Sequence record: M10495.1
Origin: a phage
Length of the DNA: 221 nucleotides
Reading direction: 5' to 3' (one strand)
Shown: positions 1-221 of the stretch, piece by piece
Position numbering within the stretch: position 1 is the first letter of the stretch
Layout of the letters: the number at the start of each line of letters is the position of its first letter
Program-made: the position numbers and the translations under genes
Notes under the pieces: model-generated
What the model was told of the DNA's origin: nothing
The model's database searches: none
What the model saw: only the letters and a program-made list of their open reading frames with translations

Positions 1-5
1 GGGGA

Positions 6-21
6 CCCCCCGGAAGGGGGG
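6..21 (+). other. 5'-terminal stem-loop; the 5' GGGGA (1-5) is left unpaired
   Basis: CCCCCC (6-11) is the exact reverse complement of GGGGGG (16-21): 6 bp stem, GGAA loop (12-15, GNRA-type). Checked by hand. Confidence 0.7.
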
Positions 22-41
22 ACGAGGTGCGGGCACCTCGT
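22..41 (+). other. Perfect 8-bp hairpin
   Basis: ACGAGGTG (22-29) pairs with CACCTCGT (34-41); loop CGGG (30-33). Checked by hand. Confidence 0.7.
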
Positions 42-53
42 ACGGGAGTTCGA

Positions 54-69
54 CCGTGACGAGTCACGG
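54..69 (+). other. 6-bp hairpin with CGAG loop; candidate exterior loop that tolerates insertions
   Basis: CCGTGA (54-59) pairs with TCACGG (64-69); loop CGAG (60-63). A weaker alternative hairpin, 42-45 with 54-57 (ACGG/CCGT), competes for the same bases. Confidence 0.65.
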
Positions 70-72
70 GCT

Positions 73-86
73 AGCGCTTTCGCGCT
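73..86 (+). other. 5-bp hairpin with TTTC loop
   Basis: AGCGC (73-77) pairs with GCGCT (82-86); loop TTTC (78-81). Confidence 0.6.
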
Positions 87-92
87 CTCCCA

Positions 93-119
93 GGTGACGC
101 CTCGAGAAGAGGCGCGACC
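93..119 (+). other. Central hairpin with internal loop
   Basis: Core stem CGCCTC (98-103) pairs with GAGGCG (109-114), 6 bp, loop GAGAA (104-108). Outer GGT (93-95) pairs with ACC (117-119) across a small internal loop (96-97 and 115-116). Confidence 0.6.
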
Positions 120-120
120 T

Positions 121-143
121 TCGTGCGTTTCGGCGACGCACGA
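121..143 (+). other. 7-bp hairpin with 9-nt loop
   Basis: TCGTGCG (121-127) pairs with CGCACGA (137-143); loop TTTCGGCGA (128-136). Confidence 0.6.
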
Positions 144-148
144 GAACC

Positions 149-171
149 GCCACGCTGCTTCGCAGCGTGGC
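149..171 (+). other. Longest perfect hairpin (9-10 bp)
   Basis: GCCACGCTG (149-157) pairs with CAGCGTGGC (163-171); loop CTTCG (158-162), or TTC if C158-G162 also pairs. Confidence 0.7.
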
Positions 172-173
172 CC

Positions 174-197
174 CTTCGCGCAGCCCGCTGCGCGAGG
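174..197 (+). other. 7-10 bp hairpin near the 3' end
   Basis: Core CGCGCAG (177-183) pairs with CTGCGCG (188-194); loop CCCG (184-187). Extendable by T176-A195, T175-G196 (G-U wobble in RNA) and C174-G197. Confidence 0.65.
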
Positions 198-200
198 TGA

Positions 201-214
201 CCCCCGAAGGGGGG
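201..214 (+). other. 3'-proximal stem-loop, mirror of the 5' hairpin
   Basis: CCCCC (201-205) pairs with GGGGG (210-214); loop GAAG (206-209). Confidence 0.65.
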
Positions 215-221
215 TTCCCCA
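215..221 (+). promoter_or_regulatory. Single-stranded 3' tail TTCCCCA: C-cluster initiation site for the replicase plus a terminal A
   Basis: Seen: bases 215-221 lie outside every local hairpin and end in CCCCA. Established knowledge: Qbeta replicase starts synthesis opposite a 3' C-cluster and adds a non-templated A. The tail could instead pair with 1-5 in a terminal panhandle (see findings). Confidence 0.6.

Follow-up and report, generated by a model that had tools for sequence, protein, structure and literature searches.

The window, by which we mean the whole stretch of DNA analysed, is 221 nt long; it starts with GGGGACCCCCCGGAAGGGGGG and ends with CCCCCGAAGGGGGGTTCCCCA. Its G+C content is 71%, and the minimum-energy (MFE) fold likewise pairs 71% of the bases. 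The plus strand reads 5′ GGGG...CCCCA 3′, and its complement has (U)GGGG at the start and CCCC at the end. Both strands are predicted to be extremely structured, with folds of -143.5 kcal/mol for the plus strand (z = -8.1) and -138.9 kcal/mol for the minus strand (z = -7.8); in neither case was any of 200 dinucleotide shuffles as good. The features discussed below are collected in Table 1.

Table 1. Features of the 221-nt window and the observations that define them.
Feature	Positions	Strand	Observation
5′ GGGG	1-4	+	Complement of the 3′ CCCC; half of a 4-bp clamp that is compatible with both hairpins
5′ leader hairpin: C6-11, GGAA loop, G16-21	6-21	+	-13.7 kcal/mol (6-11/16-21); bases 1-10 equal Qβ(+) 1-10
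Core local helices, same in all terminal conformers	22-197	+	Folds with and without long-range pairs
Individual core helices	22-41; 44-91 (enclosing 54-69 and 73-86); 92-120; 121-143; 149-171; 174-197	+	
Insertion loop site	61-62	+	Abutting primers of PMC4652763
Internal segment homologous to Qβ 4090-4134	82-126	-	39/45 identities, E 1e-10
3′ module in common with MNV-11: two hairpins and a C-rich tail	173-220	+	43/49 identities, E 2e-9
Complement of the Qβ(+) 5′ leader (nt 1-34)	187-220	-	BLAST, 88% over 34 nt, several Qβ records
3′ hairpin: G199-U216, A200-U215, C201-205/G210-214, GAAG loop	199-216	+	-13.5 kcal/mol (199-205/210-216)
3′ CCCCA: replicase initiation end and terminal A	217-221	+	Pairing with G1-4 predicted for the two low-energy states
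Alternative panhandle: 1-11/209-219 or 220, and 16-20/201-205	1-221	+	MFE fold, shuffles

Several lines of evidence bear on the identity of this molecule. Two primers for MDV-1 (18 and 20 nt; PMC4652763) have exact matches in the window, at 44-61(-) and 62-81(+), and they abut in a hairpin loop at 61|62, which is where foreign sequence was inserted into MDV-1 in that study. When the window was compared with phage records by BLAST, the one meaningful match was that of 187-220 (-) to nt 1-34 of many Qβ genomes. A sensitive alignment also uncovered the internal Qβ segment; taken from 79 to 126(-), and thus up to Qβ 4137, it retains 40 of 48 identities, so that identity is 83-87% over 45-48 nt. 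Qβ 4090-4137 runs from the end of the replicase coding sequence, whose last position is 4121, into the 3′ UTR. Finally, the last 49 nt of the window (173-220) align with positions 38-86 of MNV (sequence from PMC5986701 Table 1). Given the primer matches, the Qβ and MNV-11 homologies and the general features of the molecule, we conclude from its sequence, of which 38 of the 221 nt were checked directly, that the window is the cDNA of MDV-1(+) RNA, the midivariant template amplified in vitro by Qβ replicase. The original prediction had likewise taken it for a replicase template. Where PMC6913131 and PMC10013734 cite its origin, MDV-1 is credited to Mills, Kramer & Spiegelman 1973.

The window is like MDV-1 in its 5′ GGGG, its 3′ CCCCA, the primer matches at the insertion loop and the extreme structure of both strands, as well as in its Qβ-minus-strand-like 3′ end and internal Qβ segment. 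It has 221 nt, whereas recent papers give 222 nt for MDV-1, and no other difference was found save an offset of about 2 in the insertion site: it is numbered 63-64 in the published 222-nt molecule, and the primers put it at 61|62 here. Laboratory versions of MDV-1 probably differ by 1-2 nt in the length of C/G runs within the terminal hairpins. Such differences in run length would slightly shift the balance between the terminal conformers described below.

Other searches yielded little. Rfam 15 holds no family for the 221-nt RNA; the top match, PhotoRC-I, reached 18.6 bits, where the gathering score is 45, and was rejected as a chance match to a tetraloop hairpin. The terminal 27-mer was absent from the viral contigs scanned, and the plasmid collection gave chance GC-rich matches and nothing else. 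The two open reading frames (25 and 29 aa, with GTG starts) are trivial, and coding potential was set aside as irrelevant. A verbatim literature search with stretches of the window (its 5′ end and insertion region) and with SV-11 returned the primer paper and the MNV/RQ table and nothing more. The MDV-1 terminal sequence was not found in the supplements of PMC7378860 and PMC6913131, and PMC4176380 makes no statement on MDV-1 or on the strandedness of 3′ ends.

The two ends of MDV-1 are alike when each strand is read from its 5′ terminus. Positions 1-10 of MDV(+) are identical to Qβ 1-10, and positions 3-35 of MDV(-) agree with Qβ 1-33 at 29 of 33 positions. Both strands thus begin with the same 5′ leader module, composed of GGGG-A, a C run, a tetraloop and a G run. 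In Qβ itself, the 5′ ends of the plus and minus strands are not alike. Since 187-220 of the window is complementary to Qβ nt 1-34, its 3′ terminus mimics that of the Qβ minus strand. Further, the internal Qβ segment (82-126) and the 5′-leader copy (187-220) together point to a partial origin of MDV-1(-) from Qβ(+) RNA by recombination or deletion. For about 60% of the window, no Qβ counterpart could be detected. The 3′ module (173-220) recurs in MNV-11, a template otherwise unrelated to the window. This module of two hairpins and CCCC looks like a common possession of spontaneously arising Qβ replicase templates. We also observed a direct repeat, 83-101 and 186-204 (74% over 19 nt), centred on AGGTGAC; one copy lies in the internal Qβ segment and the other just before the 3′ hairpin, and the motif follows a stem in both. 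It is possible that this repeat represents a shared replicase-contact or duplication motif.

The original prediction held that a panhandle, made by 1-11 with 209-220 and by 16-20 with 201-205, competes with a local hairpin at each end. These pairings are indeed present. G1-4 can pair with C217-220, A5 with U216 (leaving U215 bulged), C6-11 with G209-214 and G16-20 with C201-205, for a total of -143.5 kcal/mol with the core helices. A register without the bulge (1-11/209-219, with G4-U216 and A5-U215) is equal in energy, at -143.5 kcal/mol, and is the ViennaRNA MFE of the plus strand; the MFE of the minus strand holds the equivalent, mirror-image panhandle. The core helices are identical whether or not long-range pairs are allowed. 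The panhandle and the hairpins had been regarded as mutually exclusive. This is correct for 6-11/209-214 and 16-20/201-205, but not for GGGG/CCCC: along the refolding path, this outer helix can coexist with both local hairpins. We refer to the outer helix as the clamp.

The terminal complementarity is far beyond chance. The terminal duplex of the window has an energy of -38.9 kcal/mol, a value reached in none of 2000 dinucleotide shuffles (mean -14.9 kcal/mol), in none of 2000 shuffles in which GGGG...CCCCA was kept (mean -20.4 kcal/mol) and in 6 of 2000 sequences having independent random G/C-stem hairpins at both ends. An extended terminal duplex is not common to the related templates, for which the corresponding values are -14.6 (Qβ), -15.7 (MNV) and -10.3 kcal/mol (RQ157), against -39.3 kcal/mol for the window in this comparison; what is general among them is GGG/CCC complementarity only.

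The models point to three main states: one with open ends and two hairpins, one with two hairpins and the 4-bp clamp, and the full panhandle. Their energies under four parameter sets are given in Table 2.

Table 2. Predicted energies (kcal/mol) of the three terminal states of the plus strand.
Parameter set	Open ends + hairpins	Clamp + hairpins	Panhandle
Turner 2004	-131.3	-143.2	-143.5
Turner 1999	-141.3	-147.1	-145.8
Andronescu 2007	-120.2	-125.6	-126.3
Langdon 2018	-130.2	-147.4	-148.4

In all four sets, closing the clamp is favourable relative to the open form, by 5.4-17 kcal/mol. When long-range pairs are forbidden, 10-12 kcal/mol are lost; because the clamp coexists with both hairpins, almost the whole of this penalty belongs to the clamp. 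All of these energies are nearest-neighbour predictions, and the least secure of them concerns the 4-bp helix that closes a multiloop of about ten branches (-5.4 to -17 kcal/mol). Between the two clamped states there is little to choose on the plus strand. The panhandle differs from the clamped hairpins by -2.7, -2.3, -0.3 and +0.6 kcal/mol under dangle models 0, 1, 2 and 3, respectively, and with the last of these, which treats coaxial stacking explicitly, the MFE is the clamp with hairpins. Over all conditions, the difference spans -2.7 to +1.3 kcal/mol, and which form wins depends on the parameter set and dangle model. For the minus strand, the models prefer the panhandle by 2.7-5.7 kcal/mol. 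Thus, a comparison of conformer energies bears out two competing pairings of the same G/C runs, but the panhandle is no clearly stabler ground state of the plus strand. The barrier between the clamped hairpins and the panhandle was estimated with findpath at 12-20 kcal/mol, and that from the open form to the clamp at 0-3.7 kcal/mol.

Classical drawings of the MDV-1 structure, which show the extreme termini unpaired, count against a clamp. The local fold had been supposed to keep the 3′ CCC free. The calculations speak against this supposition: at equilibrium, C217-219 are unpaired with a probability of <3% under each of the four parameter sets, and the clamped form lies well below the open one in each.

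The order in which the ends are made was also considered. Predicted MFE structures of the growing chain contain the 5′ hairpin from nt 22 to 216 (+) or 219 (-) and the 3′ hairpin at nt 213-216; the panhandle becomes optimal only from nt 217 on the plus strand, when the last 4-5 nt are made, or from nt 220 on the minus strand. Gillespie simulations of the termini were performed with the core frozen and with Metropolis rates; chain-diffusion time, replicase and S1 lay outside this model. Starting from the open two-hairpin state, the clamp closed almost at once with the hairpins kept (12 of 12 runs), and no run reached the panhandle over about 5x10^4 time units (0/12). When the 3′ end was grown nucleotide by nucleotide, the 5′ hairpin was kept in 12/12 runs and the panhandle again appeared in 0/12. 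From denatured termini, 72 runs ended as 30 two-hairpin, 19 panhandle-like and 23 mixed structures, and C217-219 were free in none of the 72 end states. These models therefore predict that 5′ to 3′ synthesis yields the two-hairpin form and that the fold depends on its history, in keeping with the earlier expectation that the local hairpins form first. The simulations also disclosed a fourth conformer (-134.8 kcal/mol), trapped in 4 of 12 growing-chain runs, in which G1-4 pair with C201-204 and G209-212 form a mini-hairpin with C217-220; the former pairing is captured while the C run emerges. The G/C homopolymer runs give rise to many slipped-register traps.

Published experiments on MDV-1 derivatives are pertinent here. 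In SHAPE-constrained MEA models of 2-kb MDV-1-derived RNAs (PMC6913131 supplement), the structures start with ‘(((.(((((((...)))))))’ and end with ‘(((((((....))))))).))).’; these brackets correspond to a GGG/CCC clamp together with both terminal hairpins, although the primer-bound extreme 3′ end probably contributes no data to these models, which are there tied to the energy model. A long-range interaction between the termini was described for 9 of 9 MDV-1-derived RNAs (PMC6913131), and for legitimate Qβ templates the 5′ and 3′ termini have been reported to cooperate. As to the claim that the local fold stops the annealing of template and product, stems in MDV-1 derivatives do lower template-product duplex formation (PMC4652763); the effect of stems is documented for these derivatives generally, however, and is not specific to the competition at the termini. 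S1 causes the product to be released as a single strand (PMC5762825).

We consider it likely that MDV-1(+) has symmetric ends, that its two hairpins are locked in by synthesis, that the clamp can close in either form and that the panhandle is an unselected by-product. In this account, replicase would need the same type of 3′ end and the same type of 5′ leader on both complementary strands; each end would therefore carry a copy, inverted with respect to the other, of a single module that stems from the Qβ 5′ leader (GGGG-A, a run of 5-6 C, a tetraloop and a run of 5-6 G). Such a module would form a hairpin by itself, and two inverted copies could form either separate hairpins or one joint panhandle. 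The duality of hairpins and panhandle would then follow simply from having inverted terminal copies of one self-complementary hairpin. The two forms would be nearly isoenergetic because identical C-G pairs are made either way, and the barrier large because two 5-6-bp G-C stems must be exchanged. With the 5′ hairpin set by about nt 22 and the 3′ hairpin set before the final CCCC, the nascent strand is predicted to emerge in the two-hairpin form. The outermost GGGG/CCCC would act as a short terminal clamp in the hairpin or the panhandle form, so that the availability of the 3′ CCC would be independent of the choice between them. Replicase would have to fray the 4-bp clamp or catch the 3′ end before it closes, and the clamp offers a plausible physical basis for the 5′/3′ terminal cooperation in legitimate Qβ templates. 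The symmetry of the ends most likely brought about the extended panhandle incidentally, without selection for it. A DNA cruciform provides an analogy, and only that: pairs are shifted between two hairpins and one helix, with a near-zero difference in energy and a high barrier. The window, by contrast, is one RNA strand whose repeats are separated by 176 nt of structured core, and supercoiling plays no part in it.

A different reading takes SV-11 as its model. The panhandle would be a ground-state dead end, the metastable hairpins formed during synthesis would free the 3′ CCC, and the sequence would have been selected for this behaviour. There is an experimentally demonstrated precedent among Qβ templates in SV-11 itself (Biebricher & Luce 1992), a metastable template whose MFE is -95.9 kcal/mol as compared with -63.6 kcal/mol for the active form. 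Like the window, SV-11 carries plus- and minus-type terminal modules on one strand and hence has mutually complementary ends; its active form is made during synthesis and interconverts slowly, as is predicted for the window. Further, the default-parameter MFE of both strands of the window has the panhandle, the loss incurred by barring long-range pairs is large, and growth order favours the hairpins. A high barrier and a dependence on history are also evident in silico (0/12 panhandle-like outcomes against 19/72), the mixture obtained from denatured termini being other than that from sequential synthesis. In SV-11, however, complementarity extends through almost the whole molecule, as opposed to about 16 bp at the ends of the window, and its long hairpin, which is inactive, is stabler than the active form by about 32 kcal/mol. 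Nothing approaching such a gap was found here: with the clamp counted, the plus-strand forms are near-isoenergetic, with the hairpin form as the MFE under Turner 1999 and under dangles 3, and the minus-strand preference (-2.7 to -5.7 kcal/mol) is small by this measure. The apparent cost of losing long-range pairs derives nearly all from the clamp, which tolerates the hairpins, and every low-energy state is predicted to have the 3′ CCC paired, including the hairpin form that should free it. We regard this reading as unlikely. The broader claim that the sequence is built for a metastable fold gives way to a simpler explanation, namely that the same Qβ-leader-type hairpin starts both strands, which makes the duality automatic.

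Equally improbable, in our estimation, is that the termini are open when the template is active. The predicted clamp would then be an artefact of multiloop parameters, or GGGG/CCCC would be parted by replicase/S1 or by the entropy of closing a domain of about 200 nt, and only the two hairpins would matter. The threefold spread of clamp stability among the parameter sets is consistent with this notion, as is the assignment of strand release to S1 and replicase. The 3′ CCC is also predicted to be largely free in other templates, which fits the reported requirements for a 3′ oligo-C and a terminal stem. MNV-11 (86-87 nt) is a case in point: it has the 3′ two-hairpin and CCCC module in common with the window, but its 5′ end is unrelated, its terminal duplex far weaker and its 3′ CCC predicted to be mostly free. 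In RQ157 and RQ11+12 (PMC5986701 Table 1), the predicted fold has the 5′ GGGGUUUCGAACCGG paired just upstream of the 3′ hairpin, leaving that hairpin and the CCC free, whereas it is the very 3′ CCCC that is paired in the window; the RQ-type templates thus place their 5′ end beside the 3′ domain by other means than the window does. Against open termini, the clamp is preferred by at least 5 kcal/mol under every parameter set and dangle model, it is present in the published RNAstructure/SHAPE models, and the evidence for terminal cooperation is experimental.

The panhandle could instead be the functional form, circularising the template so that replicase meets both ends, with the hairpins as transient intermediates. 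This idea recalls the ‘functional circularity’, or terminal helix, of legitimate Qβ templates that Ugarov and Chetverin are said to have described in 2008, and also the panhandles of RNA viruses. As in those systems, the window possesses 5′/3′ complementarity that could hold the ends together, and its end symmetry reflects the role of both strands as templates. The reported cooperation of the termini, the statistical strength of the complementarity and the status of the panhandle as the default-parameter MFE, preferred on the minus strand, all agree with such a function. Even so, we find it very doubtful: the predicted barrier from the co-synthetic state is high (12-20 kcal/mol), the panhandle was reached in 0 of 24 simulated post-synthesis or growing-chain runs, its 11-bp G-C helix would bury the initiating CCC deeper than would the 4-bp clamp, the published SHAPE-guided models show the hairpins and clamp, and MNV, RQ157, RQ11+12 and Qβ are without a comparable extended terminal duplex. 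Just as remote is the notion that the near-degeneracy was itself selected, as a bistable, four-way-junction-like switch with the clamp as the terminal helix of 5′-3′ cooperation when the replicase complex is closed and panhandle exchange as a timer, although such a timer would retire old strands from the template pool and would explain why the same leader hairpin occurs at both ends of MDV-1, unlike the arrangement in MNV-/RQ-type templates.

The terminal competition in MDV-1 is of an already known kind; the molecule, co-synthetic folding, SV-11 and 5′-3′ cooperation have all been described before, and as a discovery this one is minor. Nonetheless, work on self-replicating RNA, for example in artificial cells and in experiments on host-parasite RNA evolution, still takes MDV-1 as its standard scaffold, and which terminal conformer replicase actually uses matters for the design of replicable RNAs. 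According to the models presented herein, accessibility of the 3′ end would be set by the 4-bp GGGG/CCCC clamp and not by the choice between hairpins and panhandle, and the panhandle is removable by a stem swap that leaves both hairpins intact.
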